Shown: one piece after another, positions 70-27,653 of the stretch
How the letters are laid out: every line of letters starts with the position of its first letter
Position numbering within the stretch: the first letter of the stretch is position 1
Notes under the pieces: generated by a model
What the model was told of the DNA's origin: nothing
The model's database searches: none
The model's input: only the letters and a program-made list of their open reading frames with translations
Assembly: GCA_039803745.1 (NCBI GenBank)
Contig: JBDRZD010000023.1
Coordinates: forward strand, 1-27,653
Direction: 5' to 3'
Length of the DNA: 27,653 nt
DNA from: a candidate division WOR-3 bacterium
Lineage (GTDB): Bacteria; Hydrothermota; Hydrothermia; Hydrothermales; Hydrothermaceae
Position numbers and translations under genes: made by a program

Positions 70-83
70 GTGGGAAAAAGTGG
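60..83 (+). promoter_or_regulatory. MraZ operator: three GTGG direct repeats at 10-bp spacing
   Basis: GTGG starts at 60, 70 and 80 (GTGGTAAAAT GTGGGAAAAA GTGG), directly upstream of the mraZ ATG at 85. This matches the established GTGG-N6 / TGGG repeat architecture of MraZ sites. Confidence 0.85.
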
Positions 84-84
84 T

Positions 85-1370: not shown

Positions 1371-1585
1371 AAATGATTTTTAAAACTCTTTTAATCTTAA
1401 TAATTATTTTCTTAACCCTTTTTATAAGAGGGAAAATTATAAAAGTAGGAGCAGAAATAAAAAGACTTGAAAAGGAATGTGCAAAAATTGAAGAGGAAGT
1501 TGATAAACTGAGAAAGGAAGTCGCTGAAATGGAAAAAATGGAAAGCATTGAAAAAATGGCAAGAGAAAAAGGAATAATAAAATGA
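1367..1585 (+). CDS. ftsL: Cell division protein FtsL-like
   Basis: 72 aa with an N-terminal TM helix, a coiled coil and ..IEKMAREKG; sits between rsmH and ftsI. Confidence 0.75.
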   Translation: MKMIFKTLLILIIIFLTLFIRGKIIKVGAEIKRLEKECAKIEEEVDKLRKEVAEMEKMESIEKMAREKGIIK

Positions 1586-11645: not shown

Positions 11646-12493
11646 AAGGAATTATAAGAAATTATCCGTTAAAGAGATTAACCACAATAAGAGTAGGAGG
11701 AAATGCTCTTTTCTTTTTTGCACCAGAAAGAATGGAAGAAATTTTTGAAGCAATTAATTTTTCAGAGAAAAATTCAATCCCAATTTTTATACTCGGCGGT
11801 GGCTCAAATTGCATCTTTGGTGACGGAATAATAGAAAGACTTGCAATTTCAATGAAAAATCTTAGAGAAATAAAAATAGAGGGAAATAAACTAATTGCGC
11901 AAGCCGGAGTAAAAACGCAGGAAATTCTTAAAGAATGTGAGGATAAAAATCTTTCAGGACTTGAATTCATAGCAGGTGTTCCTGCAACAGTTGGAGGAAT
12001 GATTTACATGAATTTTGGAAGTATGGGAAAAGAAATCTGTGAATATTTAAAAAGAGTGGTAATAATAAAGGAAAGAGAAATAAAAACTCTGGAAAGGAAT
12101 GAATTAAAATTCTCTTACAGGAAAGGAATTCAGGATGGGATAATAATAGAAGCAGAATTTGAACTTGAAATGAAGGATAAGAAAGAGATAAAAGAGGCTA
12201 AAAGAAGAGTAATTTTTATGAGAAAAGAAAAACAACCCATCGATAAAAAAACAGCAGGATGCATATTCAAAAATCCACCAGGAAATTTTGCAGGGAAATT
12301 AATTGAAGAGGCAGGGTGCAAAGGAAAAAGAATAGGAGATGCAATGGTGTCATTAAAACATGCAAATTTTATAGAGAACATGGGAAATGCAAAATTTGAA
12401 GATGTCAAAAATTTAATAGAATATATAAAAGAAAGGGTTTATAAAAAATTTGGAATAAATCTTGAGGAGGAGGTAATAATAATTGAAAAATAA
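11642..12493 (+). CDS. murB: UDP-N-acetylenolpyruvoylglucosamine reductase MurB
   Basis: GGGSN, GLEF..GVPATVGG..MN.G, FSYR, QP..AGCIFKNP, KHANF and LEEEV. Confidence 0.96.
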   Translation: MKGIIRNYPLKRLTTIRVGGNALFFFAPERMEEIFEAINFSEKNSIPIFILGGGSNCIFGDGIIERLAISMKNLREIKIEGNKLIAQAGVKTQEILKECEDKNLSGLEFIAGVPATVGGMIYMNFGSMGKEICEYLKRVVIIKEREIKTLERNELKFSYRKGIQDGIIIEAEFELEMKDKKEIKEAKRRVIFMRKEKQPIDKKTAGCIFKNPPGNFAGKLIEEAGCKGKRIGDAMVSLKHANFIENMGNAKFEDVKNLIEYIKERVYKKFGINLEEEVIIIEK

Positions 12494-12971
12494 AAGAAGA
12501 AAGAAAACAAATAAGAAATTTTTAATACTATTCTTGCTAATATTTTTATTTGCCTTCTTATTTAAAAATAAAGTAACAAATCTCGGAGCAAAAAAGGAAT
12601 ATTTTGAACCTATATGTAAGTTAAATGAGAACATTTTTGTTAATGAGGAAGCAAAACTGATGAAAATGTATAAAAACTTGAATTTACCTTATGTAAAGGG
12701 TAATATAGAAATAGTTTTTAATAAGAAAATATCCTCTTTATATCCATGCATAGAAATCTTAAAAATAATTAAAAAAGATTTTCCGGAATTTTTTGATTCA
12801 ATAGAATGTATCAATTTAGATAATTATAAAATAATCTTTAAAAATAAAAAGGTGGTAACTCTTGGACTCGGTAATTTTGAAGAAAAACTCTTTTTTTTAT
12901 TTGAAAATTATAAGTATATCAAGAATGAAATTGATTTGAAATTTTTAAGTTTTAAAAAAAAGGAGGATTGA
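12483..12971 (+). CDS. Short FtsQ/DivIB-like bitopic membrane protein
   Basis: Basic N-terminus and a single TM helix, C-terminal IDLKF resembling the FtsQ IDLR motif, located between murB and ftsA. TTG start with GAGGAGG upstream; only 162 aa. Confidence 0.6.
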   Translation: MKNKRRKKTNKKFLILFLLIFLFAFLFKNKVTNLGAKKEYFEPICKLNENIFVNEEAKLMKMYKNLNLPYVKGNIEIVFNKKISSLYPCIEILKIIKKDFPEFFDSIECINLDNYKIIFKNKKVVTLGLGNFEEKLFFLFENYKYIKNEIDLKFLSFKKKED

Positions 12972-12972
12972 T

Positions 12973-14184
12973 GTGGCCAATCAAGAACTTGTTGTTGGAT
13001 GTGATTTAGGAAGTTATAAAGTTGTAGGATTAGTAGGTGTTAAAGAAGAAGATAAAATAAAAGTTTTAGGATGGGGGGAGGCGGAAAGTAAGGGAATTGA
13101 AAAAGGTGTAATAATTAACATTGAAAAGGCATCAGAATCAATAGAAGAAGCATTAAAAGGGGCATTCAGAATGGCGGGTAAAGATAAAAAGGAAATAATG
13201 GTCTCAATTTCAGGTGAACATGCAGAAGGTAAAATAGAAAAAGGATTTGTGGTTATACAAACGCCTGATAACGAAATAAGAAGAGAAGATGTTAAAAAGG
13301 TAATAGAACAGGCTAAAACAAGATCCTATTCTGAAGAAAAAGAAGTAATTTTTGTCTATCCCAATCACTTTATAGTGGATGATCAAAAAGGAATCAAAGA
13401 GCCAGTAGGAATGATAGGAGTAAAACTTGAAGTGGAAGCTTTTGTTTTAAAGGCAAAAAAGAATGTATTAAAAACAATAGAAAAATGTTTCAAAAGAGTT
13501 GGTTTTGAAATAGAAGGTTATATAACCCAACCACTTGCTTCCTCATTTGCAGTTTTAGATGAGGAAGAAAAAAGTCAGGGATGCGTTTTGATAGACATAG
13601 GAAAAGGGACAACAGACCTCGCAATATGGAAAGATGGAGGAATTCAATATACAAGTACTTTGAAAATTGGCGGGGATTTTTTAGCTGGTGACCTTGCCAC
13701 TTGTTTAAAAATACCAAAGATAAAAGCTGAAGAACTTTTAAAAAAATATAGTTTTGCTCATCCAAAATTTGCAGAGGGAAAAGAGACTGTTTTAATTGAA
13801 AGAACAGGTGGAAGACCACCTATAAAGGTAACTCCTGAAGAATATGCCCAAATAACTGAAGCAAGACTTATTGAGATATTCAGATTTTGTGAATTAGAAA
13901 TCCTTAAATGGGGAGGAAAGGAAAACCTTATAGCAGGAATAGTTTTAACAGGTGGATATGCTAACCTTGAAGGAATAGAAGAAATAGCTGAAGAGGTTTT
14001 TAAACTGAGTGTGATTAAAAAGGGGGCAAAAGATGTGATCGGATTATCCAATGAAATAACGCATCCCTCTTATTCAGCAGCAATAGGAGTCCTAAAAATA
14101 GGAATAATGGAAAGAGAAAAAATTAAGAAAATGAAAAAGAAAAGTTTTTTTAGAAAATTAATTGATTTTTTAGAAAAAATTTAA
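12973..14184 (+). CDS. ftsA: Cell division protein FtsA
   Basis: DLGSYKV, S.GIEKG.I.NIE, P.GMIGVKLE, IDIGKGTTD and VLTGG.ANL.G. GTG start with AGGAGG upstream. Confidence 0.96.
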   Translation: MANQELVVGCDLGSYKVVGLVGVKEEDKIKVLGWGEAESKGIEKGVIINIEKASESIEEALKGAFRMAGKDKKEIMVSISGEHAEGKIEKGFVVIQTPDNEIRREDVKKVIEQAKTRSYSEEKEVIFVYPNHFIVDDQKGIKEPVGMIGVKLEVEAFVLKAKKNVLKTIEKCFKRVGFEIEGYITQPLASSFAVLDEEEKSQGCVLIDIGKGTTDLAIWKDGGIQYTSTLKIGGDFLAGDLATCLKIPKIKAEELLKKYSFAHPKFAEGKETVLIERTGGRPPIKVTPEEYAQITEARLIEIFRFCELEILKWGGKENLIAGIVLTGGYANLEGIEEIAEEVFKLSVIKKGAKDVIGLSNEITHPSYSAAIGVLKIGIMEREKIKKMKKKSFFRKLIDFLEKI

Positions 14185-14204
14185 GTTTAAAAGGAGGTTT
14201 AAAA

Positions 14205-15302
14205 ATGATAAAATTTGCTGAAAGCCCTTATAAGGGAATAACAATAAAAGTAATAGGTATAGGAGGAGGCGGCTCCAATGCAGTATCTTATATGAGCAGA
14301 AATAATATAAAAAATATCGTCACGATCGCATTAAATACTGATGCCCAACATCTTGCAAGGGTTAATGCTGATGAAAAAATAGTAATTGGTAAAAAAATTA
14401 CAGGAGGGCTTGGAGCAGGTGGAGATCCTCAAATAGGGAAAAGGGCTATGGAAGAATCTCTTGAAGAAATTAAGGAAAAAATAAGGGATGCCGATCTTGT
14501 TTTTTTAACAGCTGGACTTGGTGGCGGAACCGGAACCGGTGGAATTCCTGTACTTGCAAACGCAATTAAGGAAATGGGAATACTTACAGTAGGAGTTGTA
14601 ACAAAACCTTTCAGAGAAGAAGGCAAAAAAAAGATGGAAAAAGCAGAAAGAGCCCTCCTTGAACTAAAAGATAAAGTAAATACATTGCTTATTATACCTA
14701 ATGATAAACTTCTTCAAAGCGATCAAAAGATATTATTCAAAACAGCTCTTGAGAAGGCAGACGAAGTTCTCTACAGAGCAGTAAAAGGAATCGTGAACAT
14801 AATTCAAGAACCAGGATATATAAATGTTGATTTTGCTGATGTAAAAAATATACTCACACTTGGAGGAAGAGCAATAATAGGAATGGGAGAAGGAAAAGGA
14901 GAGAAAAGGGGAATTGAAGCAATAAGAAGTGCAATTTCCTCGCCACTTTTAGAAGAAGTCGATGTGAAAAAGTCCAAAGGTATACTCATAAACATAAGAG
15001 GAAAAGATATAAGAACAGAAGAAATCCAAGAGATTTTTGGATATCTTGCTTCAGAGATAAATCAAAAAGAAGATATAGAAACAATATTGGGAGTTGATAT
15101 TACCGATGAAGTTTCTGAAGGAACAGTGGAAATTACTTTAATAGCAGCCGGTATAGAAGATGAAAGGATAAGGAAAAAGGAACTCGAACCTTTCCCTGAA
15201 AGAACTTCTGAAGAAGAAATTATGGTTCCAACATTTTTAAGAAAATTCCGTAAAGAAGATAAAAAATTTGAGTATCCGGAAAACGGGGATACAGAAATTT
15301 AA
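14205..15302 (+). CDS. ftsZ: Cell division protein FtsZ
   Basis: GIGGGGSNA, NTDAQ, GLGAGG.P, GGGTGTG tubulin signature, INVDFADV and C-terminal VPTFLRK. AGGAGG ribosome-binding site. Confidence 0.98.
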   Translation: MIKFAESPYKGITIKVIGIGGGGSNAVSYMSRNNIKNIVTIALNTDAQHLARVNADEKIVIGKKITGGLGAGGDPQIGKRAMEESLEEIKEKIRDADLVFLTAGLGGGTGTGGIPVLANAIKEMGILTVGVVTKPFREEGKKKMEKAERALLELKDKVNTLLIIPNDKLLQSDQKILFKTALEKADEVLYRAVKGIVNIIQEPGYINVDFADVKNILTLGGRAIIGMGEGKGEKRGIEAIRSAISSPLLEEVDVKKSKGILINIRGKDIRTEEIQEIFGYLASEINQKEDIETILGVDITDEVSEGTVEITLIAAGIEDERIRKKELEPFPERTSEEEIMVPTFLRKFRKEDKKFEYPENGDTEI

Positions 15303-17095
15303 AAATTAATAAAAACAGTGAGCATTTCGCCCTCAGAAGAGTTAATTCTTACTTCATTTTGAGAAATTTCTAAATTTTTAATTTCCTTTTCCCCTTTAAA
15401 ATCAAGAAGTTTTAATTCCTTTGGTGGAGTAAGAAAATTTATGCTAAAAGAATTTCCAATAGAGACCCCCCTTAATATAAATTTCTTGGAATCGACCTGC
15501 CTCATTGAGCAGAGAAGAAAAATTCCATCTTTTATTGTAAACATTTTACAAATATTCTTTTCCTTAATCCTAAGAGGTGAATAAATGAAGGGTAAAAATT
15601 TATCCCATATATTTTTTTCATTCTCCGGGAATGGATAAAATACCATTAAAAAGGGACCTTCTTTGAATTTCAGTTCTATTCCCTTATCCCTGATTTTGAA
15701 AAAATAGGGAAATGGAGAAAAAATTGCAAAATCAAAATCTTGGGGATATAAAAGATAAGCAAAGCCTTCTCCTTTTGCATTTAAAATTTTGAATCTGTGA
15801 GAAAGAGTTTTTATAATTTCCCCTTTAAGGTTGACTCTAAAAAGAATTTCACAATTTTTCTCCTTTATATTCCCTTCAAATATCACATAGGGATAGAATT
15901 GAGAAAATATTTTCTTTAATTTTATTTCTCCTTCTGAAAGTTTAAAATTTTCAAAATATATTTTATAATACCTTCCCTTTTCAAAGAAAACTTCTTTTAA
16001 AGAATCCTTTATAATTTTTCCATCCCTTTTTATTTCAATGTTTAAATTTAAAGGAGAGAAATCTTCTCTTTTTTTGTGAACAAAAACAAAATTATTTCCC
16101 ATTCTTCTCACTTTAAAATTCCTTGAAACTTTTAAAAATTCTTTTTCAAAAACAAATTCAAAAGGCTTTAACTCTTTCAGCAAATACCTTTTCCTGTCAG
16201 GAAAGAAAAGAGTGAAGGGATAGGGATTAAAAAGTTTACCATTTTCTACATTTTTAAATCCAATTTTTTCTAAAACTTTATTTAGAATAGCTTTAAATTC
16301 CTTTAAATTTGATTTCTTTTTAGAAAGGGAAGTAAATTCTTCGAAAATGTAATCAATTAAAAGGGAAAGATTTAAAGAGTTTGAAAAGCCGGAATAGGAA
16401 ATTAAATATTCTGTTTTAAATAGCAAATCCTCAATCTTTTTCATATACATTAAATTCTCTCTTTTTTCTTTATATAAAAAATTCTCGGAATTCTCAAAAT
16501 ACTTTTCAGTTAAGTAAAAAAATTCTTCTGGAGAAGAATTAATATAAATTGCCTCATTTTCTTTATCTTCGCAAATTTCTTCCTTAAAAACCATTTTGTA
16601 TGGAGAATTTGTATTTTTTTTGCCTACCGGATTATAAATCATTATCATTCCATTTTTAAGTTTTATTTTTGAAAATTCAGGATAATCTTTATCAAAAAAA
16701 ATAATTTTATTAAAGCCGAGAGCAAAAATTTCTTCAGAAATCTCATTCAGATCAAAAATTTTATCTAAAAAAAATATTTTAATTCCTCCTCCTATTCTTG
16801 AAGAAATTCTTTTTGCCATTTCATAAAATCTTATAAGGGAAACAACCCGCATATTTGAAAAATCAAAATTTTTATAAATTAAAGGAAAAGAAATTTTTTT
16901 TAACTTCCCCCAATTAAAAATTTCCTTTTCAAGAGAGGGATTAAATTTTAAAAGTTCCTCGATTCTCTTTGTATAAAAAGAAAGGAGAAGATGATTTATT
17001 TTATTTTCCCTTATTTTTTCAATAAAAGTACCTATTTTTGAAAAATAATCCACTGAGGATGGTTTTACAAAATAGATTTTGTAAATTGTTTTCAT
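15299..17095 (-). CDS. Hypothetical protein resembling a degenerate GH38 alpha-mannosidase (probable pseudoenzyme)
   Basis: By eye, the N-terminal ~150 aa track the GH38 N-terminal pattern, a central LFNPYPF matches VFNPL.W, and the C-terminal beta region (CSMRQVDSKKFILR...EMLTV) matches SALK.AED...LR...EI.T. The Zn-binding HxD motif is absent. Confidence 0.55.
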   Translation of the reverse strand: MKTIYKIYFVKPSSVDYFSKIGTFIEKIRENKINHLLLSFYTKRIEELLKFNPSLEKEIFNWGKLKKISFPLIYKNFDFSNMRVVSLIRFYEMAKRISSRIGGGIKIFFLDKIFDLNEISEEIFALGFNKIIFFDKDYPEFSKIKLKNGMIMIYNPVGKKNTNSPYKMVFKEEICEDKENEAIYINSSPEEFFYLTEKYFENSENFLYKEKRENLMYMKKIEDLLFKTEYLISYSGFSNSLNLSLLIDYIFEEFTSLSKKKSNLKEFKAILNKVLEKIGFKNVENGKLFNPYPFTLFFPDRKRYLLKELKPFEFVFEKEFLKVSRNFKVRRMGNNFVFVHKKREDFSPLNLNIEIKRDGKIIKDSLKEVFFEKGRYYKIYFENFKLSEGEIKLKKIFSQFYPYVIFEGNIKEKNCEILFRVNLKGEIIKTLSHRFKILNAKGEGFAYLLYPQDFDFAIFSPFPYFFKIRDKGIELKFKEGPFLMVFYPFPENEKNIWDKFLPFIYSPLRIKEKNICKMFTIKDGIFLLCSMRQVDSKKFILRGVSIGNSFSINFLTPPKELKLLDFKGEKEIKNLEISQNEVRINSSEGEMLTVFINF

Positions 17096-17874
17096 ATTAT
17101 TTTTTTAAAAATTTTTTCCTTTATATTTAAAGGTAAATAAAAATTTTCAAAATCAGGATGAATCATCTCAACCTTTCCTAAAATAAGTATTCCATCTTTT
17201 TTTAGAGAAGAAGTTAAATTCTCAAAAACTTTTCTTTGTGCATCTTTTTGCATGTATATTAAAACGTTCCTGCAAAGAATGATATCAAAATCATTATCAA
17301 AAGGCGAAGAGAGAAGATCATGAATTTTGAACTCTATATGTTTTTTAACAAAATCTTTTACTTTAAATTTATTATTTATTTTTTCTATATACTTAATCCT
17401 TAAATAAAAAGGAAAATCTTCAAGTTTCTCTCCTTCAAAAATTCCGTTTTTTGCCATTTCAATAATTTCTGAGTCAAAATCTGTTGCAAATATTTTAAAA
17501 TTTTCAAAACCCTGATCTAAAAAGAGAATTGAAAGCGTGTATGCTTCCTCACCTTGTGCACATCCTGCACTCCATATTTTTATAAAATCTCTATTTTTAA
17601 AATAAGGTAAAATAGTATTTTTAATTGTTTCAAAAACATCCCTGTCTCTAAAAAAAACCGAAACATTTATTCCAATTGTATCTATTAGATTTTGAGATTC
17701 TTTTTCTTCTTTCAAAAGTAAATTGTAATAAGAAGAAAGGGTATGAGAACGGGTTTTTGCCATCCTTATCTTTACCCTTCTTAAAAGATAACTCTCCCTG
17801 TAAGCTGAAAGGTCTATTCCCATTTTTCTTTTAATAAAATTTTTAATAAGTTCAAGGTATCTAAGGTCCTCCAT
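17092..17874 (-). CDS. cheR: Protein-glutamate O-methyltransferase CheR
   Basis: GIDLSAYR...L.RR, INVSVFFRD, IWSAGCAQGEEAYT, ATD, HDLL, FDIILCRNVLIY and GILILGKVE. Confidence 0.93.
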   Translation of the reverse strand: MEDLRYLELIKNFIKRKMGIDLSAYRESYLLRRVKIRMAKTRSHTLSSYYNLLLKEEKESQNLIDTIGINVSVFFRDRDVFETIKNTILPYFKNRDFIKIWSAGCAQGEEAYTLSILFLDQGFENFKIFATDFDSEIIEMAKNGIFEGEKLEDFPFYLRIKYIEKINNKFKVKDFVKKHIEFKIHDLLSSPFDNDFDIILCRNVLIYMQKDAQRKVFENLTSSLKKDGILILGKVEMIHPDFENFYLPLNIKEKIFKKII

Positions 17875-19441
17875 TTTTTAAACTTTTTTCAAGGAGTTCA
17901 AGATTTCTTTTTAAAAGTTTATTTTGAGGCTCGATTTTTTCAGCCTCTTTCCAAAAATTAAGTGCCTTTTCTCTCATACCCTCCCTTAAATAGAGAATCC
18001 CCAGCCTGAAAAAAGACCTAAAATGTTTTGTCCTTTGAATCACTTTTTCATACTGTAAAATAGCATTATGAATATCTTGAACTTGATAATAAGTTTCTGC
18101 CAGTAAAAAATTAAATCTCCATTCGTCAGGATAAAGGGAAAGACCTTTATTTAAAACTTCTATGGCATTTTCATATTTTTTTATAATGTGGAAAATGAAT
18201 CCTTTTAAAATTAATAAGTTCTTATTTTCCGGTTCGGTTTTTTCAATTAAATTTAAAACTTCTTGAGCATTCAAATATTTTTTTTCTTTTATATATATTA
18301 ATGCAAAATATAAAAAGGATGTCTTTAAATCAGGAAAATCCTTTATAACCTTTTTAAAATATTCTTTTGCAACCTGTATATTGCCACTTTCGTATTCAAG
18401 AATTCCTTTTAAAAGTAAAAACTTTTTATCCTTCTCATCCTTTATTTCTTCTAATAACTTATTAGCAGATTCAAAATCCTTTAATTTATAACAGGTAAAA
18501 GCAATATTATGAATTAACTTCTTATTATTTGGAGTAATTTCTTTTGCCTTTTCAAAAAATTTTTTTGCAATTTCATAATTATTTCTATATACTTCAAGAA
18601 TACCCATAAAAAAGTAACCTTCAGAAGAATTAGGTGCCATTTCTATCACTCTTTTAAATTCCCTTTCTGCTTCCTCGAAAAGATTTATTTTTAAAAATGC
18701 CATCCCAAGGTTCAGATGTTCTAATATTTTTTCCTTTTGGGATTCCTTAGGAATTAGAAATGGGGCATGTTTTCTAACAGCCCCTTTTGTAATAAGAGAT
18801 TGTAAAATTTCAGCAGCTTCAATTATTCCAAGTCCGGAAGATTCAATTATTTCTTTTACATTTTTTTCTCCATCTATTTTTTCATAAATTATTTTTTCTT
18901 TTTCATTAAGGGTAAAAACACCTGAATAATTTTTTGTAAGGACCATTTCAAGAGGATAGATTATTTCTTTAACCTTCTCCCATTCATCATACTTTGTAAT
19001 TGATTCTATTAAAAACCTTGAAGGATCTATTTCCACAACAGGTCTTTGTTTGGGATATTCATCAGGAATAAAATTGAAAAAACCCTCTTCCCACAAAATT
19101 GCTTCTCTCAAATATTCCATTATTTCTTTCTCTTTATATTTTTTTAAAATTTCTTCATCAAATCCCATTTCACAAAGAACATAACCTATATTTGGATACC
19201 CCTGATCAAGTAATGAAATTGCTTTTTTGAAAGTTTTTTCATCTATTAAATTATCTTTTAAAAGAAGTTCCCCTAACTTTTCTTTTCGGTTTACCATCAG
19301 TGAATATACTATAATCCCGTCTTTTAAAAATACTTCTAAAAAATCATTACCATTTGTTATTGAAAGTTTACCCGTTTTTTTACCTATATGAAGAAGTTGA
19401 AAAACATCCGTTACAGGAACCTCCTTCAAACTGCCCCTCAT
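17861..19441 (-). CDS. DUF4388 (PatA-N-like) domain protein with an MshEN-like insert, a winged-helix segment and C-terminal TPR repeats
   Basis: MRGSLKE...DVFQLL..GKKTGKL.I...F.DG.I and W.EG.F.F are the DUF4388 pattern. IDGEKNVKEII...L..L...G is wHTH-like, and about 7 TPR-like repeats follow. ATG at 19441 (ATGA overlap with the upstream gene) is preferred to TTG at 19453. Confidence 0.82.
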   Translation of the reverse strand: MRGSLKEVPVTDVFQLLHIGKKTGKLSITNGNDFLEVFLKDGIIVYSLMVNRKEKLGELLLKDNLIDEKTFKKAISLLDQGYPNIGYVLCEMGFDEEILKKYKEKEIMEYLREAILWEEGFFNFIPDEYPKQRPVVEIDPSRFLIESITKYDEWEKVKEIIYPLEMVLTKNYSGVFTLNEKEKIIYEKIDGEKNVKEIIESSGLGIIEAAEILQSLITKGAVRKHAPFLIPKESQKEKILEHLNLGMAFLKINLFEEAEREFKRVIEMAPNSSEGYFFMGILEVYRNNYEIAKKFFEKAKEITPNNKKLIHNIAFTCYKLKDFESANKLLEEIKDEKDKKFLLLKGILEYESGNIQVAKEYFKKVIKDFPDLKTSFLYFALIYIKEKKYLNAQEVLNLIEKTEPENKNLLILKGFIFHIIKKYENAIEVLNKGLSLYPDEWRFNFLLAETYYQVQDIHNAILQYEKVIQRTKHFRSFFRLGILYLREGMREKALNFWKEAEKIEPQNKLLKRNLELLEKSLKNGGP

Positions 19442-21174
19442 ATTTCTTCCCAAATAATTTCTTCAAGATAAATAAAATCAAAAGCAATTTCATCAATTAA
19501 ACTTTTTTCTTCCCTTGGAATCCCTATCTCAAAATCCTCGCATGTAATTTTTTCTTTTGGTAATGAAAGAATTTCATTGAGAAAATTTGTAAGTGCTTTT
19601 AAATCCTCCCATCTCCTTTGAATTATTTTCTGCATTGCATCTTCTTCAATAATTTTGCCTTTTGAAGAAGAATACAAGATTATTATTTTCTCAATAGCAT
19701 CAGGAGTTGGTGAATTTATATAAATTTTCTTTACAGGAATTTCAATATCTATTTCTTCATGGGAACCAACCACAACTTTCTTCCCTTCACTTATCCACTT
19801 TTTTAAAAGTTTTTCCAAATTTTTACGGATTTCTTCAATTTTTAGAAAGGAATGGAGATCGTCTATGAATAAATATTTATACTCGGAAAGAATGGGAAAT
19901 TCTTCAACACCTTTTGAAACAAATTCAAAATTACTTATTATTTCATTTAAAAATATCTTCTCTTTTTCTTTTAAAATTTTAAATCCATAATTAAGTAAAG
20001 AAGTTATGCCATTCCTTCCTTTGCTTATTATAGCAAAAATACCCGGGGGCTCTTTATCCAATCTTTTTAAAAAATCAAAAGCATCTTTATTAAATTCACC
20101 AACAACTATTTCAGGGATTTCTTCTATTTCAACAATTTCTTCTTCCTTTTTCTTTACAAGTTCATCCATCTTTTTTTCAATTTCCTCTATTTTGTCAGGG
20201 TCAAATAACATCCTCTCTATTTCTTCATCGGTTTCACCTATCTCTCCGTATCTTTTTTGAAGCTCAACAAGTTTTTTAATATCTTCAACAAATCTATCGT
20301 ATTCTTTTTTGATAGTTTCAAGAGAAGCATTTCTAAGAGATTCAAGTCTTTTAACTTCAAAGCCTTTCATACTCCATATATATATTTTCTCTTCAAGAAA
20401 TTCTTTTATTTTTTTTGCATCTTCAATTTCTTCTACAAGTTGTGAAATACTTTCTTCAATCTTCTCCTTTAAATCAGGGAAAATAACTTCTTCATACTGC
20501 CCTCTTTGGAAAGTATAGGCTATATCCCGATAATCAATATTTCCTTTTTTCACAATATTTAAAAGAATAAGTTTATTAACTATGCCTTCTATTTTCCTTA
20601 AATTTATTTTCTCTGAAACTCTTATAATCTTTATTAAATTCTCATCAATTTCTACTCCTTTTTTTATTAATTTAAATTTTATAATTTCGTAAACTTCATT
20701 TAGATCAGGTGGTAAAATTCCAACTTCTATCCCGCTTGATAATCTTGACTTCAAAAGTAATATAAGTTCTTTAAAATTTTCAATCTCATGAAGAGATGAT
20801 AAAATAAATTGGTTATCCTGAGCAAGAAAGGTTTCAAAGTTAATCAAAAAGACCTTCTGAATTTCTTCGCCCATTTTAATAAAATCATGAAAATCATCAA
20901 CTATTATCCATGAATTCTTTGGAATTTTACGGGAAGAAATCATTTCTTGAAATTCAAAAGGATTAAGAAATAAAACATTTTCATTTTTTTGAATAAGATA
21001 ATTTGCACAGGCTGATAAAATATGTGTTTTACCCAAACCTTCTTCTCCATATATGTATAAAGGATTGAACATACCCTTGTTTTTCAAAACTGCGTCACAG
21101 GCAGCATAAACAAGCCTCACACCTTCATATACATAAAAATTTTCAAAAGAATATTTTGGATTTGGATTAGCCAT
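19438..21174 (-). CDS. DnaA/Hda-family protein with tandem AAA+ modules (not the replication initiator)
   Basis: N-terminal KYSFENF, FNPLYIYGEEGLGKTH (Walker A), IIVDD (Walker B), LKSRLSSG (box VII) and NLRKIEG (sensor 2). An acidic helical linker follows, then a second degenerate module (VVGEFN..A, SKGRNGITSLL, YLFIDDLH). No DnaA domain I or domain IV. Confidence 0.85.
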   Translation of the reverse strand: MANPNPKYSFENFYVYEGVRLVYAACDAVLKNKGMFNPLYIYGEEGLGKTHILSACANYLIQKNENVLFLNPFEFQEMISSRKIPKNSWIIVDDFHDFIKMGEEIQKVFLINFETFLAQDNQFILSSLHEIENFKELILLLKSRLSSGIEVGILPPDLNEVYEIIKFKLIKKGVEIDENLIKIIRVSEKINLRKIEGIVNKLILLNIVKKGNIDYRDIAYTFQRGQYEEVIFPDLKEKIEESISQLVEEIEDAKKIKEFLEEKIYIWSMKGFEVKRLESLRNASLETIKKEYDRFVEDIKKLVELQKRYGEIGETDEEIERMLFDPDKIEEIEKKMDELVKKKEEEIVEIEEIPEIVVGEFNKDAFDFLKRLDKEPPGIFAIISKGRNGITSLLNYGFKILKEKEKIFLNEIISNFEFVSKGVEEFPILSEYKYLFIDDLHSFLKIEEIRKNLEKLLKKWISEGKKVVVGSHEEIDIEIPVKKIYINSPTPDAIEKIIILYSSSKGKIIEEDAMQKIIQRRWEDLKALTNFLNEILSLPKEKITCEDFEIGIPREEKSLIDEIAFDFIYLEEIIWEEI

Positions 21175-21571
21175 ATATCTCTTTTAAAACTTCATTAAAT
21201 TTTTTAAAAAACCTTTTTGCCTGCGTATCAACTATACCAAGAATTGTCCTGTCATCAAAAAAGGCTGCAAGAAAGAAATCCCCCTCTAAAAGTATATAAT
21301 ATATATTCCATTTTTTTCCTTCCTGGTAAAAAACTCTAAAACCTCTTTCCCCCACAATTCTTGCCAGTTCCTTTGTGCTCTGAAATATACCTGCACATAG
21401 GGCAGAAACAGCAAGCAGAGTGAATGTATCTTTAAATCCTGAAGATGCAATCAATTGACCACTTAATGTGCTTAACATAGCAGAATATACACCCGCTCTT
21501 AATGTAAATTCCTCTATCATATTTTGAATTTTTTCTATTTCTTTTTCTTTTAATATTAATGTATCCCACAT
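21167..21571 (-). CDS. Roadblock/LC7 (MglB-like) protein
   Basis: 134 aa with AML...SGQLIA..G, SALCAGIFQSTKELARIVGE..F...YQEG...IY and F.DRTILG, which is the MglB-like pattern. Confidence 0.85.
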   Translation of the reverse strand: MWDTLILKEKEIEKIQNMIEEFTLRAGVYSAMLSTLSGQLIASSGFKDTFTLLAVSALCAGIFQSTKELARIVGERGFRVFYQEGKKWNIYYILLEGDFFLAAFFDDRTILGIVDTQAKRFFKKFNEVLKEIYG

Positions 21572-21614: not shown

Positions 21615-22559
21615 TTATTTATAAAAACCTTTTGGGATGTTATCTAAGGTTCCATGAGTTAATCTATGAAGATTTAAAAGCCTCTCAAAATTCTTTTGAA
21701 CACCTTTTTCCATCTCTTCTATTTCTTCATCAGATAAATGTTTAAATCTTCCCTGAATTTTTATAAATTCTTTTAGTGGCTTTTTATTTGGTATAAAATT
21801 TAATGTATATTTTTCACCATCTTCTATCTCATAAAGGGGAAAGAAATTTGTTTCAACGGCAAGCCTTGAAATCTTTATCGTGATTTCAGAAGAAGGGAGT
21901 CTCCATCCAGGTGGGCAGGGAGAATAGATTAAAAGAAATCTAACTCCTCTGCCTTTTAATTCTTTTGCCTTTTTCACTTTTTTCATCAAATCATCAAGAT
22001 AGGCAATTGAAATTGTTGCAACATAAGGAATTCTATGAGCAGCCATTATCCCTATTATATCTTTTTTAGGTCTTGGATTAGGTCGCGTATAAGGAGTTGT
22101 TGTTGTCCATGCTTTATAAGGAGTTGCACCGCTTCTCTGTATTCCTGTATTCATATATGCTTCGTTATCATAGCAAATATAGATTATATCATCACCCCTT
22201 TCTGCTGCACCTGATAGTGCCTGAATCCCTATGTCATATGTTCCACCATCTCCTGCCCATGCAACAACATTAACATCTTTAAATCCTTTTGCTTCCAAAC
22301 CTGCTTTCAGTCCAACAGCAGAGATTGCTGCTGTTTCAAAGGCAACATGCAAAAGAGGAACCTTTAAAGAATGCATAGGATAATTGCCATCTATTATTGT
22401 CCAGCAACATGCAGGAATTGCAAATACTGTATTTTTACCAAGAACCCTTAAAACATGCCTCATCGCAATTGGCGCACCGCATCCCTGGCAGGAAAGAATT
22501 CCTGGATTTAAAAATTCTTCTCCTTTTGTTTCCTTAATTTCTTCAAAATAAAATTTCAT
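21615..22559 (-). CDS. porB: 2-oxoacid (pyruvate/2-ketoisovalerate):ferredoxin oxidoreductase beta subunit (TPP-binding)
   Basis: CQGCG, ACCW, GDGG..DIG, YDNEAYMNTG.QRS and SPCP. ATG at 22559 (ATGA overlap with the alpha subunit) is preferred to the track's start at 22574. Confidence 0.92.
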   Translation of the reverse strand: MKFYFEEIKETKGEEFLNPGILSCQGCGAPIAMRHVLRVLGKNTVFAIPACCWTIIDGNYPMHSLKVPLLHVAFETAAISAVGLKAGLEAKGFKDVNVVAWAGDGGTYDIGIQALSGAAERGDDIIYICYDNEAYMNTGIQRSGATPYKAWTTTTPYTRPNPRPKKDIIGIMAAHRIPYVATISIAYLDDLMKKVKKAKELKGRGVRFLLIYSPCPPGWRLPSSEITIKISRLAVETNFFPLYEIEDGEKYTLNFIPNKKPLKEFIKIQGRFKHLSDEEIEEMEKGVQKNFERLLNLHRLTHGTLDNIPKGFYK

Positions 22560-23707
22560 TTCTTTAACCCCCAAAAGTTTATTTCTTCAAACTTTTTCCT
22601 CTTTAAAAAATCAGAAACTATCTCTTCAATAGTTGAAGGCGTTATATCTCTTCCACCAAGTCCTAAAATATAACCTGCACATTTTGTTTTCTTCTGTCCA
22701 AAAAGTGCAGATTTTATTTCCTGGAAAAATATTCCACCTGCACCAAAAGAAATATTTCTATCAAGAACTATAACTTTTTTACCAACAAGATATTTTCTTA
22801 TTTCATCATAAGGGAATGGTCTGAAAACCCTTATCCTTAAAACACCGATATTTTTTCCATTTTCTCTCATCTTTTTAACCGCATATTTAACTGTTGATGA
22901 ATATGCACCTGCACAAACTATCACTATTTCTGAATCTTCTGCAAAGAAGGATTCAACAAGCCCCCAGTATCTTCCAAATTTTTCTTCAAATTTTTTCCCT
23001 TCCTCTTTAATAATATCTATTGCTTCTTCCATCGCCTTTTGAATTTTATATCTGAATTCCATATAAAAATCTGGTGATGTAACAGCACCAATTGCTCTTG
23101 GATTTGAAGTATTTAAAGCAAGGGGATTTTTATAAGGTGGTAAAAAATCGTCAACAATTTTCTGATCTGGAATTTCAACAGGTTCTGATGTATGTGATAA
23201 AACAAATGCTTCAAGCACTATCATTGTGGGAAGAAAAACCCTTTCCCCTACTTTATAACTTAAAATAACACTATCAAGAACTTCTTGATTTGATTCACAA
23301 TAAATTTGCATCCAGCCTGTATCCCTCTGAGAAAGGGAATCTGTCTGCTCGGTCCATATTGACCATGGAGTTGCCATTGCCCTGTTTATAACACCCATGA
23401 CAATAGGAGTTCTTGCAGAAGATGCCCAGTGTAAAAGTTCATGCATTAAAGCAAGTCCCTGAGCAGAAGTAGCAGTAAATGCCCTTGCACCTGCTATTGA
23501 TGCACTTATACAAACAGCAAGTGCCGAGTGCTCTGATTCTACATTAACAAATCTTGCATTAAGTTCACCGCTCCCAACCATCTCAGAAAGAAGTTCAACA
23601 ACCTGGGTTTGTGGAGTTATAGGATATGCAGAAATCACTTCAACCCTTGAAAGTTTTGCACCATAAGATAAGGCATGATTCCCCATTATAACTTTTAAAT
23701 TTTTCAT
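22556..23707 (-). CDS. porA: 2-oxoacid:ferredoxin oxidoreductase alpha subunit
   Basis: GNHA, AYPITPQT, VESEHSA, TATSAQGLALMHE, NRA, RPFP and GLGGRD. Confidence 0.93.
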   Translation of the reverse strand: MKNLKVIMGNHALSYGAKLSRVEVISAYPITPQTQVVELLSEMVGSGELNARFVNVESEHSALAVCISASIAGARAFTATSAQGLALMHELLHWASSARTPIVMGVINRAMATPWSIWTEQTDSLSQRDTGWMQIYCESNQEVLDSVILSYKVGERVFLPTMIVLEAFVLSHTSEPVEIPDQKIVDDFLPPYKNPLALNTSNPRAIGAVTSPDFYMEFRYKIQKAMEEAIDIIKEEGKKFEEKFGRYWGLVESFFAEDSEIVIVCAGAYSSTVKYAVKKMRENGKNIGVLRIRVFRPFPYDEIRKYLVGKKVIVLDRNISFGAGGIFFQEIKSALFGQKKTKCAGYILGLGGRDITPSTIEEIVSDFLKRKKFEEINFWGLKK

Positions 23708-25378
23708 TTATTCCTCCTCTAACATTGTTATAATTCCTCTTGGACATTCTTTTGCACATATTCCACAACCCTTACAATAATCATAATCAACTTCAGGTTT
23801 TTCATTTATCCATAATATTGCTGCATCAGGACAATAGGAATAACATATTCCACAGGAATTACACACCCCACAGGAAAAACATCTTAAAACTTCTTCAAGT
23901 GCCTCTTCTTTTGTAAATCCAGGGTTTTCTTCTACCTCAAGGGATTTTATTCTTTCAGAAGGTGATAGTTCTTTTGGCCTTAATGCATTTTTCTTTTCAA
24001 AATATTCCATTTGAATTTGCATAAAGGAAACTGTTTTTTCTGGAGGCTCTACTTTTAAAACCTCTTCGCCTTTTAAATATCTCTCTATTGCCTCTGCACT
24101 TTTCCTTCCCCATCCAAAGGCTTCAACAACAGTAGAAGGTCCTTGAACAAAATCGCCTCCTGCAAAAACCCCGGGGATTTTTGTTGCACCAGTCCTTTTA
24201 TCTGCATATACCCATCCATCCTCTCCGAGAATTTCAGGAGGAACACATGTTCTATCACTTTCTTCACCTATTGCAGTTATAACTGCATCAAAAATTTCGT
24301 CCTCTTCAGAACCTTCAATTGGGACAGGTCTTCTTCTTCCTGATTTATCGGGCTCACCAAGTTTCATCTTTATATTTGTTAAAATTATTTTATCATTTTC
24401 CTTTCTTGCTTTTACAGGTAATGTCAAAAATCTAAACTCTATTCCATCTTCCTTTGCCTTTTCTATTTCTTCTTTTAATGCAGGCATTTCATTTTCAGTT
24501 CTTCTATAAAGTAAAACAGGCTTTGCTCCCATCCTTAAAAGTGTTCTTATAACATCCATTGCAACATTGCCACCACCAACAACTGCAACTTTTTTACCAG
24601 GCGGCTCCCTTTTCCCAAGAGAAACCTCTTTTAAAAATTCAGAACCTGAAATAAAATTCTCCTCCCCTTCTATTCCCATTTTCTTTTCTACATGAGCACC
24701 TATTCCTATAAATATTGCATCAAAATCCTTTTTTAAATCATAAACATTTATATCTTTACCAAGTTCTTTTTTAAATTCAAATTCAATGCCCATCTCTATA
24801 AGTATTTCAATTTCTTTATCAAGGATTTTTTTTGGCAATCTATATTCAGGAATTCCGTATCTTAAAATTCCTCCTGCCTTTTCTTCTTTTTCAAAAATTA
24901 TAACCTTATAACCCATTTTCCTTAAATAAAAGGCACAGGAAAGACCAGCAGGACCTGCACCGATAATTGCTATCCTTTTATCTTTTTCTTCTTTTGGCTT
25001 TTGCTCAATTTTATATGGCAAATATAAATCACCAACAACCCTTTCAATCTCTCTTATTGATATCCTCTCATCAAATTTCCTTCTATTGCAAGCAGTCTGA
25101 CAAAAAGCAGGACAAACTCTTCCTGTTATTGAAGGAAATGGATTGTGTAAAGTTAAAATCCTTCCAGCCTCTTTTATATTCTCATCAATAAAAAAATTGA
25201 AATATTCAGGAATTAAAGTATTTGTTGGACATGCTTTTGAACATGGAGCAGATTTATTTTTTATCAGAGGTCTTAAATTTCTCCAACTTCCTGTTTTATT
25301 ATGCCTTGTTGTTGCTGTTGAAATTGGTATTTCAGGATAATCTTTGAATTTTTCAAATTTAATTTTTTCTTCATTCAT
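23708..25378 (-). CDS. PorD-like ferredoxin (delta) subunit fused with an internal GltD/NfnB-like FAD/NAD(P)H oxidoreductase
   Basis: N-terminal PorD motif KTGSWR..RP. GltD-like core: PC..ACP, NPFP..TGRVCP..C...C.R, IIGAGPAG, YGIPEYRLP, VVGGGNVAMD, YRRT and FAGGD. C-terminal RCFSCG followed by two CxxCxxCxxxCP motifs (DYDYCKGCGICAKECP). Confidence 0.88.
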   Translation of the reverse strand: MNEEKIKFEKFKDYPEIPISTATTRHNKTGSWRNLRPLIKNKSAPCSKACPTNTLIPEYFNFFIDENIKEAGRILTLHNPFPSITGRVCPAFCQTACNRRKFDERISIREIERVVGDLYLPYKIEQKPKEEKDKRIAIIGAGPAGLSCAFYLRKMGYKVIIFEKEEKAGGILRYGIPEYRLPKKILDKEIEILIEMGIEFEFKKELGKDINVYDLKKDFDAIFIGIGAHVEKKMGIEGEENFISGSEFLKEVSLGKREPPGKKVAVVGGGNVAMDVIRTLLRMGAKPVLLYRRTENEMPALKEEIEKAKEDGIEFRFLTLPVKARKENDKIILTNIKMKLGEPDKSGRRRPVPIEGSEEDEIFDAVITAIGEESDRTCVPPEILGEDGWVYADKRTGATKIPGVFAGGDFVQGPSTVVEAFGWGRKSAEAIERYLKGEEVLKVEPPEKTVSFMQIQMEYFEKKNALRPKELSPSERIKSLEVEENPGFTKEEALEEVLRCFSCGVCNSCGICYSYCPDAAILWINEKPEVDYDYCKGCGICAKECPRGIITMLEEE

Positions 25379-25942
25379 TTAATCCTCCTTTAAAAAAACT
25401 TTTTCAAAGGCTTCCTGTGCAGCCTTTTTATTCTCCTCAATTTTCACAGGGACCTCTTCTTCAATTGCTTCAAGCAAACTTTCTAACTTACATAATCCTG
25501 TTATTCTTATAAATGCACCAAGTATAGCAGTGTTAACAATTGGCTCTGTTTTTGAACCAAGTCCATATTTAATAGCAATAGAGTTTGCATCAACTGTTGC
25601 AATTTTCAATTTAAAGGGCGCTTTGATTTCAGAAGGTAAAGATTTTGAATTTATAAGAATGGAACCGCCTTCTTTTATCCCTTCAAAAACATTTACTGTT
25701 TGCATTAAAACAGGATCAAGAACAATAACATGATCAGGATTATAAATTCCTGAACGCAGAATTATCTCTTCGCCCTTTTCCTGTATCCTCAAAAAAGCAA
25801 GGACAGGCGCACCTCTTCTTTCAACTCCAAACTGTGGATATGCAAGAACCTTTTTACCTTCCTTAAATAAAGAAACTGCAAGAATCTTTGAAGCGATAAC
25901 AGCACCCTGCCCACCTCTTCCATGAAACCTTATTTCAATCAT
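25379..25942 (-). CDS. porC: 2-oxoacid:ferredoxin oxidoreductase gamma subunit
   Basis: [28 protein letters not shown] and [14 protein letters not shown] ribosome-binding site. Confidence 0.93.
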
Positions 25943-26076: not shown

Positions 26077-27653
26077 ATGAGTATGGTATATGGGGTACTC
26101 CTGAGTGTGGTAATAAATATGGGGATGGATAAAATAATGCCATCCCTGAAGGAAATCATGCAGAATACAGGTCCTGATGAAAAAATAGCAATACTTGTCC
26201 ATATGGCTGAAAAACCAGACTTTGAAGCAATAAAAAATCTCCCACCAAAAGAATATGTGGAATACATTAAAAATTTTGCAGAGAATTCACAAAGGGATAT
26301 AATCAATTACCTAAAAACTAATTTCTCAAATAAAATAGAAGGATTAAATCCTTACTGGATATTCAATGGATTCTATGTTAAGGCAACTAAAGAAGTAATA
26401 GAAGAACTTGCAAAAAGAGAGGATGTTGAATACATAATTGAAGATTTTGTAATCCAACTTGAAGAAGTTAAACCTGCTGATCCGACAATCCTTACACCAA
26501 CATGGAATGTAACAAAAGTAAAAGCAGATTCCTGCTGGAATGCAGGTTATACAGGAGCAGGAGTAATAATTGGACATATGGATACAGGTGTTGATATAAA
26601 CCATCCAGCATTACAGGGAAAATGGTTATCACCTTACTGGTATGACCCCATAAATGGACAACCCAATCCTTATGATGATAATGGACATGGAACCCATACA
26701 ATGGGGACAATTCTTGGAGGCGATGGAAATGGACCATTTGCAAATGATATAGGTGTTGCTCCTGGTGCAAAATTTGTAGCATGCAAGATATGTAATTCAG
26801 GCGGTTCATGTCCTTCCTCAGCAATTCATGCAGGATTCCAGCAGATTGCTACATGGAGATCACAGGGAGTTCTAATTGTGGCTGCATCAAACTCATGGGG
26901 TTCAACTGCTACAACCTCTACTGAATTCTGGCAGGATTGTACAAACTGGAGAAATGTTGGTATTTTCCCTGTATTTTCAATTGGAAATAGCGGACCTAAT
27001 CCAAACACTGCAGGAACACCTGGTAATTTCCCAATTGTTATAGGTGTTGGTGCAACTGATGCAAGTGATAATATTGCTTCATTCTCTTCAAGAGGACCTG
27101 CTCCAAACCAGGCACCATGGAATCAAACTCAATACTGGATGAGACCTGATTGGAACAGGACGAAACCTGATATATCTGCCCCTGGAGTAAATGTTTATTC
27201 TTCATTACCTGGTGGCTCTTATGGAAATATGAGTGGAACATCTATGGCATGTCCACATGTAACAGGTGCAATTGCAATAATCAATCAGAAAAATTCTGCC
27301 CTTGATGTCCCAACAATTTATAATTTACTCCTTGACTGGGCTGACAAACCTTCTCAGGGAGCACCTTATCCTAATAATAATTATGGATGGGGGAGATTAA
27401 ATGTATATCAAGCACTTTTACATACACCTACTCCAAATATGCCAAATGTTTATCTTGAATCTTATACATTGCAGGATGCAGGCGGAAATGGTTATTGGGA
27501 TCCAGGAGAAACTGCATATATAAGAGTAACATTAAGAAATACAGGTGCAAATGCAACAAATGTTAATGGAACTCTAAGAACAACATCCCCATATGTAACA
27601 ATTCAGGATTCAACATCAAGTTTCGGAAATATTCCACAGGGAGGAAGTGCAAA
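26077..27653 (+). CDS. S8 subtilisin-like serine protease (bacillopeptidase F-like) with an I9-type propeptide and a downstream Ig-like domain; 3' end lies beyond the window
   Basis: Manual translation from ATG 26077 stays open to the window end. The catalytic triad is in frame: MDTG (Asp 26581), GHGTH (His 26686) and GTSMACPHVTG (Ser 27241). Also FSIGN, FSSRGP and KPDISAPG; propeptide YWIFNG; post-catalytic DAGGNGYWDPGE...LRN.G. Confidence 0.93.
   Translation, partial: MSMVYGVLLSVVINMGMDKIMPSLKEIMQNTGPDEKIAILVHMAEKPDFEAIKNLPPKEYVEYIKNFAENSQRDIINYLKTNFSNKIEGLNPYWIFNGFYVKATKEVIEELAKREDVEYIIEDFVIQLEEVKPADPTILTPTWNVTKVKADSCWNAGYTGAGVIIGHMDTGVDINHPALQGKWLSPYWYDPINGQPNPYDDNGHGTHTMGTILGGDGNGPFANDIGVAPGAKFVACKICNSGGSCPSSAIHAGFQQIATWRSQGVLIVAASNSWGSTATTSTEFWQDCTNWRNVGIFPVFSIGNSGPNPNTAGTPGNFPIVIGVGATDASDNIASFSSRGPAPNQAPWNQTQYWMRPDWNRTKPDISAPGVNVYSSLPGGSYGNMSGTSMACPHVTGAIAIINQKNSALDVPTIYNLLLDWADKPSQGAPYPNNNYGWGRLNVYQALLHTPTPNMPNVYLESYTLQDAGGNGYWDPGETAYIRVTLRNTGANATNVNGTLRTTSPYVTIQDSTSSFGNIPQGGSA

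Follow-up and report, generated by a model that had tools for sequence, protein, structure and literature searches.

In the window analysed here (27,653 nucleotides of contig JBDRZD010000023.1, from the genome of a candidate division WOR-3 bacterium), an open reading frame (ORF) of 578 aa with an ATG start (positions 19438..21174, minus strand) encodes a tandem DnaA-type AAA+ protein, termed AAA2x. Judged by its sequence, AAA2x is a paralog of DnaA and is not the initiator of this genome. Profile, fold and motif evidence bear out an earlier assessment made from the DNA letters (the sequence-only reading), in which this ORF was a DnaA paralog with one intact and one degenerate AAA+ module. AAA2x is probably a non-replicative descendant of the DnaA motor, most likely an ATP-dependent switch or scaffold in a conserved chemosensory and polarity module. 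Outside replication, in which they serve as DnaA, Hda and helicase loaders, AAA+ domains of the DnaA type are hardly known; AAA2x represents the same motor, deprived of its DNA-binding part and fixed in a cluster of chemotaxis and MglAB-type polarity genes in several uncultured lineages.

The first of the two modules of AAA2x (residues 1-224, 20503..21174; all features of the gene are on the minus strand) includes a lid and, by motif alignment, is a module that retains every catalytic motif of DnaA domain III. The Pfam family Bac_DnaA matches residues 5-151 (E 7.9e-21, with a score of 75 bits where 23 is the cut-off), and the NCBIfam model of DnaA, TIGR00362, matches residues 4-216 over profile positions 104-329 (E 1.8e-35) with a score of 122.9 bits, about one third of the equivalog cut-off of 343.9 bits. 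Because this alignment opens at position 104 of TIGR00362, AAA2x begins where domain III of DnaA begins. Walker A (GEEGLGKT, residues 43-50, 21025..21048), Walker B (IIVDDFH, residues 90-96, 20887..20907), sensor I, the box VII arginine and sensor II are in register with the DnaA of the same genome: box VII (LKSRLSSG, residues 141-148, 20731..20754), with R144 at the arginine-finger position, aligns to RLVSRFQWG of that protein, and sensor II (NLRKIEG, residues 191-197, 20584..20604), with R193, aligns to NIRQLES. R144 is nearly invariant and R193 invariant in the family alignment. The DnaA-specific stretches that follow Walker B and sensor I (GKERTQEE and TSDRPP) are not retained in module 1.

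Module 2 (residues 352-555, 19510..20121), a DnaA-fold pseudo-ATPase according to structural comparison and a motif table, is related to DnaA faintly in sequence and clearly in its predicted fold. Its P-loop reads SKGRNGIT (residues 384-391, 20002..20025), with isoleucine in place of the Walker A lysine, and its Walker B motif is FIDDLH (residues 436-441, 19852..19869). The coordinates of Walker A in the sequence-only reading (21048-21025) were correct, and the motifs named there (VDD, SRL and NLR in module 1, SKGRNGIT and FIDDLH in module 2) are all present. Two further losses in module 2 had been overlooked: box VII, which carries the arginine finger, is deleted (the site now reads IPVKKIY, 19720..19740, and relatives are 7-9 residues longer here), and the arginine of sensor II has been replaced by lysine. 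Lacking the Walker A lysine, box VII and the sensor II arginine, module 2 cannot work as a normal ATPase in the lineage of the window.

The match of module 2 to Bac_DnaA is below threshold (E 0.059, 14 bits), so that of the two matches of N type anticipated earlier only one was recovered; the expected lack of a match to the C-terminal domain was observed. The best NCBIfam match of the C-terminal half is to holA, the delta subunit (E 2.7e-4), and a hidden Markov model (HMM) built from module 1 of the family matches residues 378-538 (E 1.2e-4). An AlphaFold2 model of residues 226-578, calculated from a 53-row alignment, has a predicted local distance difference test score (pLDDT) of 82. When the C-terminal half was compared with 48,161 PDB chains by VIA-align, the four best matches were all DnaA domain III: 8btg_A (Z 17.9, root-mean-square deviation 3.1, 200 residues aligned), 8bv3_A (Z 17.7), 2z4r_A (Z 17.5) and 1l8q_A (Z 15.7). 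These matches span model residues 127-330, which correspond to protein residues 352-555, and the next match after DnaA is the RFC-like loader subunit 7sgz_C of Rad24-RFC (Z 15.2). Foldseek agrees on DnaA domain III (8bv3_A, E 3.2e-7, TMt 0.63). The proposal that the C-terminal half adopts an AAA+ fold is therefore supported by the predicted structure, which matches DnaA domain III best.

DnaA consists of a single AAA+ domain plus domain I and the helix-turn-helix (HTH) of domain IV. Neither Bac_DnaA_C nor DnaA_N has a match in AAA2x at E values up to 1 with the whole protein or up to 10 with three parts of it, in line with the absence of a DNA-binding domain that had been read from the sequence. 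In a genome-wide scan, PF08299 was found only on contig C7 and not at AAA2x, and PF11638 had no match in AAA2x. The canonical dnaA that had been predicted to exist elsewhere is present on contig C7 and encodes 438 aa with matches to Bac_DnaA (232.6 bits) and Bac_DnaA_C (96.5 bits). All three observations that could have overturned the earlier assignment thus came out in its favour: the C-terminal half has an AAA+ fold by prediction, domain IV is undetected, and the genome has a canonical dnaA elsewhere.

Hda has one module only (about 230 aa) and carries a clamp-binding motif at its N terminus. The Hda model TIGR03420 matches residues 5-184 of AAA2x (E 3.2e-17) with 62.8 bits, far under its cut-off of 194.8 bits, and the N terminus of AAA2x (MANPNPKYSFENF) contains no motif resembling the clamp-binding type QL[SP]LPL. 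An internal sequence, ILSLPKEK (residues 535-542), bears a loose resemblance to clamp-binding motifs of the QLSLPL type. In Stahliibacteriota-type relatives, a disordered linker carries one to three copies of V[SP]LGLPGEE (e.g., at loci L007, L009, L012, L019 and L021), which aligns with ILSLPKEK of the window in columns about 690-790 of the family alignment and likewise loosely recalls clamp-binding motifs. This motif makes no contact with TPR or CheR in the three-chain structure prediction described below.

AAA2x is the second gene in a string of five on the minus strand, in which successive starts and stops overlap by 8, 16, 14 and 4 nt. Upstream is a gene for a Roadblock/LC7 protein (MglB-like, 134 aa, 21167..21571; Robl_LC7, E 3e-6); downstream are genes for a PATAN-TPR protein (530 aa, 17861..19453; DUF4388, E 2.5e-21, plus TPR families), a CheR methyltransferase (260 aa, 17092..17874; CheR, E 5e-50) and a protein of 598 aa with no Pfam family (U598, 15299..17095). 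An MglB-like Roadblock protein and CheR are thus encoded in one overlapping gene string with AAA2x.

This arrangement is conserved. A scan of genomes yielded 18 loci, several of them from Candidatus Stahliibacteriota, in which ORFs were called and then labelled by phmmer; the labels of neighbouring genes were confirmed by Pfam on 28 ORFs. Sixteen of the 18 loci contain AAA2x as a complete ORF, and PATAN-TPR follows directly in 15 of these 16, the remaining locus stopping at the end of its contig. CheR is downstream in 14 of the 16, and CheD and CheB follow CheR in 12-13 loci. Upstream, Roadblock is present at 17 of the 18 loci and a Ras/Arf-like GTPase at nine. A scan of metagenomes with proteins of the P0024 type, a group of more distant relatives, gave 80 loci, among which 25 of those of at least 6 kb hold a gene of the tandem type with labelled neighbours. 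PATAN-TPR is the next gene in 24 of these 25 loci, a GTPase lies just upstream in 23, and CheR is present in 19; CheD, CheB, CheW and a 290-aa TPR protein are usually found downstream. Pfam analysis of two such loci (L057 and L069) identified CheY, CheA and CheC upstream, together with a TPR protein of about 900 aa, a second PATAN-TPR protein and a TPR-Roadblock protein. As a control, 15 loci from the same metagenome scan with dnaA of canonical length were inspected, and none has any of the Che, PATAN or GTPase neighbours. No replication gene is among the labelled neighbours of AAA2x, and a role in replication is unlikely because the neighbours are polarity and chemotaxis genes.

No MCPsignal domain, characteristic of methyl-accepting chemotaxis proteins (MCPs), was found in the ORFs scanned (11 at L057, four at L069 and the 28 of the genome loci). 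MCPs are encoded elsewhere in the genomes checked, including those of the Stahliibacteriota type. The genome of the window encodes two MCPsignal proteins over the cut-off plus a weak one, and the CheR of the operon is the only CheR found in it; the operon of the window includes neither an MCP nor CheA. Elsewhere in this genome, the genes of the TPR protein TPR296 and of the AAA_22 ATPase are still adjacent on contig C46, and cheD lies beside a TPR gene on contig C15. Type IV pili are represented by four T2SSE (PilB/PilT-type) ATPase genes over the cut-off, and FHIPEP/FlhA was not found in this genome, which is 93.5% complete. The genome of another member of the same genus (G108) encodes an MglA-like GTPase on another contig (E 1e-91). 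An argument considered during the analysis, that the GTPase has been lost from the genome of the window and the Roadblock protein must therefore regulate the ATPase, was dropped, since the same-genus genome has the GTPase and a gap in the assembly is possible.

Between the two modules of AAA2x lies an all-helical domain of about 95 aa (residues 250-345, 20140..20427) with the consensus EKIYIWxMKGF ... LxxLQ ... LFDPD. It is the most conserved part of the family and contains the majority of its invariant positions (E262, W267, G271, F272, L302, Q306, F324 and P326), and when modelled alone it forms three long helices (pLDDT 85). Its matches to Pfam are all sub-threshold, the best E value of a profile against PDB sequences is 0.087, Foldseek returned no match at E of 0.001 or less, and the ESM Atlas gave no usable match. 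The best VIA-align scores are Z 7.2 (the EbhA repeat 2dgj_B, root-mean-square deviation 3.4, 120 residues aligned) and Z 6.5 (EzrA, 4uy3_A), both of them below the chance level for helical bundles, so that the middle domain has no significant match. A spectrin-like three-helix repeat may be taken as a lead to its identity and nothing firmer.

The C-terminal tail of AAA2x (residues 557-578, 19441..19506; KSLIDEIAFDFIYLEEIIWEEI) is acidic and poorly ordered in the AlphaFold2 model. It contains an element that is conserved in all three lineages of the family (EEKSLIDEI, REERFIxxEI or REKxVWxWP) and a second at or near the end of the protein (EEIIWEEI, GELIEDNF or DRVIEELR). These elements are retained at four loci without a nearby CheR.

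Structure prediction supports the docking of this acidic tail in a basic groove of the adjacent PATAN-TPR protein. Whole PATAN-TPR, CheR and residues 533-578 of AAA2x were modelled together, with alignments of 25 rows in the same locus order (24 for the tail). The tail and the TPR region obtained ipSAE scores of 0.70, 0.66 and 0.67 in three runs; all three controls, including one in which the tail and CheR were kept and the PATAN-TPR chain was replaced, scored 0.00. The contacts predicted with confidence are between residues 557-578 of the tail and residues 251-479 of the TPR region, with agreement of at least 70% among runs and a partner pLDDT of at least 58; no contact of the tail with CheR is listed. 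The groove is basic and lined by asparagine, lysine and arginine; N316 is 96% conserved, and the position of K344 is mostly basic. In the calibration of the tool, 116 of 157 solved complexes and two of 215 mismatched pairs attained the same mark, counts that are only roughly valid here because three chains and purpose-made alignments were used. Conservation of the contact residues was considered as independent support for the docking and was rejected, there being no excess over the rest of the TPR region.

Relatives of AAA2x indicate how the second module came to be degenerate. By word-indexed search, the identity of full-length relatives is 56-90%, with a single protein at 33% and a further group at 26-31%; an exhaustive search gave 23 representatives at E of 1e-30 or less, and the middle domain is present in 82 of 283 proteins fetched. 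At the lysine position of the second Walker A, the 53-row alignment has lysine in 36 rows, arginine in six and an aliphatic residue in 11, the last being the protein of the window, its close clade, P0018 and P0139. P0137, with GRNGKT in its second P-loop, represents an intermediate state. Stahliibacteriota-type proteins have GTGK/RT and DN in module 2 and lack the box VII arginine, and in the clade of the window box VII has been lost entirely. Relatives of the P0024 type have a canonical module 2 (GxGKT, DD, RLxSRxxGGL) and match Bac_DnaA in two stretches (338 bits). A protein of the P0024 cluster from a Gemmatimonadales metagenome-assembled genome bears the name 'DnaA/Hda family protein', and copies of this type occur in soil metagenomes. 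Because the more distant relatives retain a complete module 2, the pseudo-ATPase state is derived, late and lineage-specific. In a tree of the modules, calculated by a quick method with SH-aLRT as its only support measure and containing long branches, the stem branch is 3.5 for module 2 of the window versus 1.65 for module 1.

A profile of the middle domain matched 76 of 201 sampled genomes of the phylum of the window; among high-quality genomes the count is 58 of 152, and among genera 34 of 90. In the 201-genome search, the gene is all-or-none within families (e.g., 20 of 20, 10 of 10 and 13 of 14 genomes, versus 0 of 19, 0 of 11 and 0 of 8). The open frames that carry the middle domain in one family measure only about 385-400 aa, and short one-module forms therefore exist. 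Other architectures were also encountered: P0155, P0161 and P0173 (about 1100-1400 aa) have six to nine repeats of the middle domain followed by a single DnaA-type module and a zinc ribbon; P0158 and P0234, which the Pfam scan excluded, have the same repeats before a DnaA-type module according to an HMM search; and P0157 and P0176 are giant proteins (about 1900-2000 aa) with MshEN and two DnaA AAA+ modules. Bac_DnaA_C is absent from all 11 unusual architectures that were scanned with Pfam. Full-text literature searches, with a coverage that excludes subscription journals, found no description of the AAA2x family.

In the proposed mechanism of AAA2x as a switch or scaffold, module 1 would bind and hydrolyse ATP and, through its arginine finger, drive self-assembly in the style of DnaA; module 2 would be a structural or regulatory half-site; and the middle domain may serve as a spacer or a surface for partners. 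The tail is predicted to couple AAA2x to the PATAN-TPR adaptor, and the complex may relay chemosensory or MglAB-type polarity information to type IV pili, which are the likely output. The motifs are compatible with the nucleotide-controlled oligomeric switch suggested in the sequence-only reading. If AAA2x has this role, the initiator motor would have a second, non-replicative career, the family would provide a natural series in which a two-site ATPase gives way to one with a single site and a pseudo-ATPase half, and the predicted seat of the tail in the TPR groove would be a concrete contact.

Several observations weigh against this interpretation of AAA2x. The cluster is trimmed in the genome of the window, with CheD on contig C15, CheB on C19, and TPR296 and AAA_22 on C46. 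An MglA-like GTPase was not found in this genome by tblastn or by profile; given the GTPase of the same-genus genome and a completeness of 93.5%, this absence may be due to a gap in the assembly and is not read as a loss. The ATPase competence of module 1 is read from its motifs alone. The docking of the tail is a measure of model confidence, obtained with a modest partner pLDDT (59-65) in a job unlike those of the calibration, and because complexes of TPR domains with peptides are common among solved structures, the high score may partly reflect likeness to them. The TPR residues in contact with the tail are not conserved in excess (mean top-residue frequency 0.543, a value reached by 3519 of 10000 random subsets, versus 0.527 for the rest of the TPR region). 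The backbone of the module tree is unresolved, and the origin of the two modules is not shown by it. The link to type IV pili depends on literature about PATAN and on the failure to find FlhA in an incomplete genome.

Further explanations of AAA2x deserve consideration. With a low probability, it may be the energy-using core of an undescribed polarity or chemosensory device, in which initiator-type polymerisation, driven by the arginine finger and without DNA, would build or reset a cytoplasmic or polar scaffold that holds PATAN-TPR through the tail. By analogy, the adjacent Roadblock protein may in that case regulate the AAA+ protein itself; LC7/Roadblock proteins are known to act on the AAA+ motor dynein. 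If AAA2x is such a core, the lineage-specific death of module 2 would leave a one-site switch in place of an ATPase with two sites. It is unlikely that AAA2x is instead a positioning ATPase, the ATP-driven assembly of which places or partitions a cytoplasmic chemosensory or polarity complex without being a signalling switch itself. ParA-like ParC and PpfA position chemoreceptor arrays, proteins of the DnaA clade are generally known to form nucleotide-dependent polymers, AAA2x is encoded inside che clusters that include CheW and CheA in their fullest versions, and the long arrays of middle-domain repeats in related proteins could act as a spacer or ruler, all of which would suit a positioning function; however, no DNA-binding or membrane-binding element is seen in AAA2x, which has no domain IV and an acidic tail, and this explanation overlaps with the switch or scaffold, from which sequence cannot separate it.

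A surrogate receptor, in which AAA2x stands in for an MCP, serving CheR, CheD and CheB as substrate or tether, and its xWEEx end acts like NWETF, the C-terminal pentapeptide of chemoreceptors, is quite improbable. CheR, CheD and CheB do follow AAA2x at most loci, the cluster ORFs that were scanned have no MCPsignal domain, and proteins of the clade of the window end in IWEEI or IWETL after a flexible stretch, but the tail is predicted in the TPR groove, with a score of 0.00 when CheR is kept and the TPR chain is replaced, and it persists at the loci that have no CheR nearby. In the other lineages the place of this terminal motif is taken by IEDNY/F or IEELR, so the tryptophan is not conserved, and the MCPs and single CheR of the genome of the window (Stahliibacteriota-type genomes also have MCPs) indicate that this CheR has ordinary substrates. 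The IWEEI end as an NWETF-like tether of CheR was accordingly lowered to a rival, given the preference of the prediction for the TPR groove and the restriction of the tryptophan to the clade of the window. Least probable by our estimate is a regulator of replication, an Hda-like or DnaA-poisoning paralog that co-assembles with DnaA or binds the clamp and so tunes initiation. With its arginine finger and sensor II, module 1 might in principle be able to join a DnaA-ATP filament or to cap it, Hda TIGR03420 matches AAA2x, and ILSLPKEK and V[SP]LGLPGEE are loosely reminiscent of clamp motifs. Yet the Hda score is far under the curated cut-off, the N terminus lacks a motif of the clamp-binding type, GKERTQEE and TSDRPP are not retained in module 1, the tail is predicted on a TPR protein, and the polarity and chemotaxis neighbours are absent at canonical dnaA loci. 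The earlier suggestion that AAA2x regulates the true DnaA by assembling with it is disfavoured by these neighbours (Roadblock, PATAN-TPR, Che proteins and a GTPase) and by the predicted partner of the tail.

The orthologue of U598 at locus L004 is divided into two ORFs (219 and 435 aa), and in distant relatives the position of this gene is occupied by CheD, CheB and a TPR protein. Language-model features of U598 point to glycoside hydrolases of the GH38/GH57 type (score 0.95, 189 shared features), which is treated as a lead only. Positions 70-15302 of the plus strand hold a complete dcw cluster with mraZ, rsmH, a gene for a penicillin-binding protein (PBP) transpeptidase, mur and ftsW genes, ftsA and ftsZ; the mur and ftsW genes were judged from size and order, and Pfam was run on six of the ORFs of the cluster. 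The dcw cluster is convergent with the minus-strand operon and ends 3 nt inside the stop of U598. Directly upstream of the operon, at 21615-25942 on the minus strand, is a set of genes for a 2-oxoacid:ferredoxin oxidoreductase (gamma, a GltD-like flavoprotein with ferredoxin domains, alpha and beta), and at 26077-27651 on the plus strand an S8 subtilase gene runs off the end of the window. The G+C content of the window is 26-36%. The cumulative GC skew has its maximum at about 15-16 kb, coinciding exactly with the switch of the genes from plus to minus; this peak fits the strand bias of the genes and is no evidence for either an origin or a terminus.

Among known systems, the closest comparison for the cluster as a whole is the Frz pathway of Myxococcus xanthus with MglA/MglB and TPR effectors such as SgmX (PMC3441718 and PMC7519303). 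Like Frz and MglAB, the AAA2x cluster in its fullest versions combines CheA, CheW, CheY, CheR and CheB with a Ras-like GTPase, Roadblock proteins and TPR scaffolds, and the genome of the window has ATPases of type IV pili; unlike them, it has a tandem AAA+ protein as a fixed member and no MCP was seen in it. Neither a DnaA-like ATPase nor a PATAN-TPR partner is known from the Myxococcus system. In passages of PMC4316618, genes for MglA and MglB are reported near PATAN genes with DnaA unmentioned, and the polarity and chemosensory parts of Myxococcus do not form one operon.

In comparison with DnaA, both modules of AAA2x have the AAA+ fold of the initiator clade with its lid. DnaA has domain I, a linker and the HTH of domain IV, whereas AAA2x has two modules per chain, joined by a new helical domain, and polarity and chemotaxis genes as neighbours. 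Hda and HdaA likewise are DnaA-like AAA+ modules without a DNA-binding domain; AAA2x differs from Hda in its tandem modules, its middle domain, its tail and its gene context. Tandems of an active and a degenerate AAA+ module are known from D1 and D2 of NSF, and pseudo-ATPases from the delta subunit of the clamp loader and from ORC subunits. As in NSF-type tandems, a complete module is paired in AAA2x with one that is conserved in fold and dead in its motifs, and the fold matches of the C-terminal half include NSF D2 (1d2n_A, Z 13.6). NSF and the clamp-loader proteins are closed-ring assemblies from the classic or the clamp-loader clade, whereas both modules of AAA2x are of the DnaA clade, with a helical spacer of about 125 residues between them and a dead state that is lineage-specific. 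For the tail, the nearest parallel is the binding of the acidic EEVD C termini of Hsp70 and Hsp90 by the TPR domains of Hop and CHIP. The predicted complex of AAA2x likewise places an acidic extreme C terminus, studded with hydrophobic residues, in the concave groove of a TPR superhelix, with a different motif and with about 22 residues engaged, compared with the five to eight of EEVD peptides.

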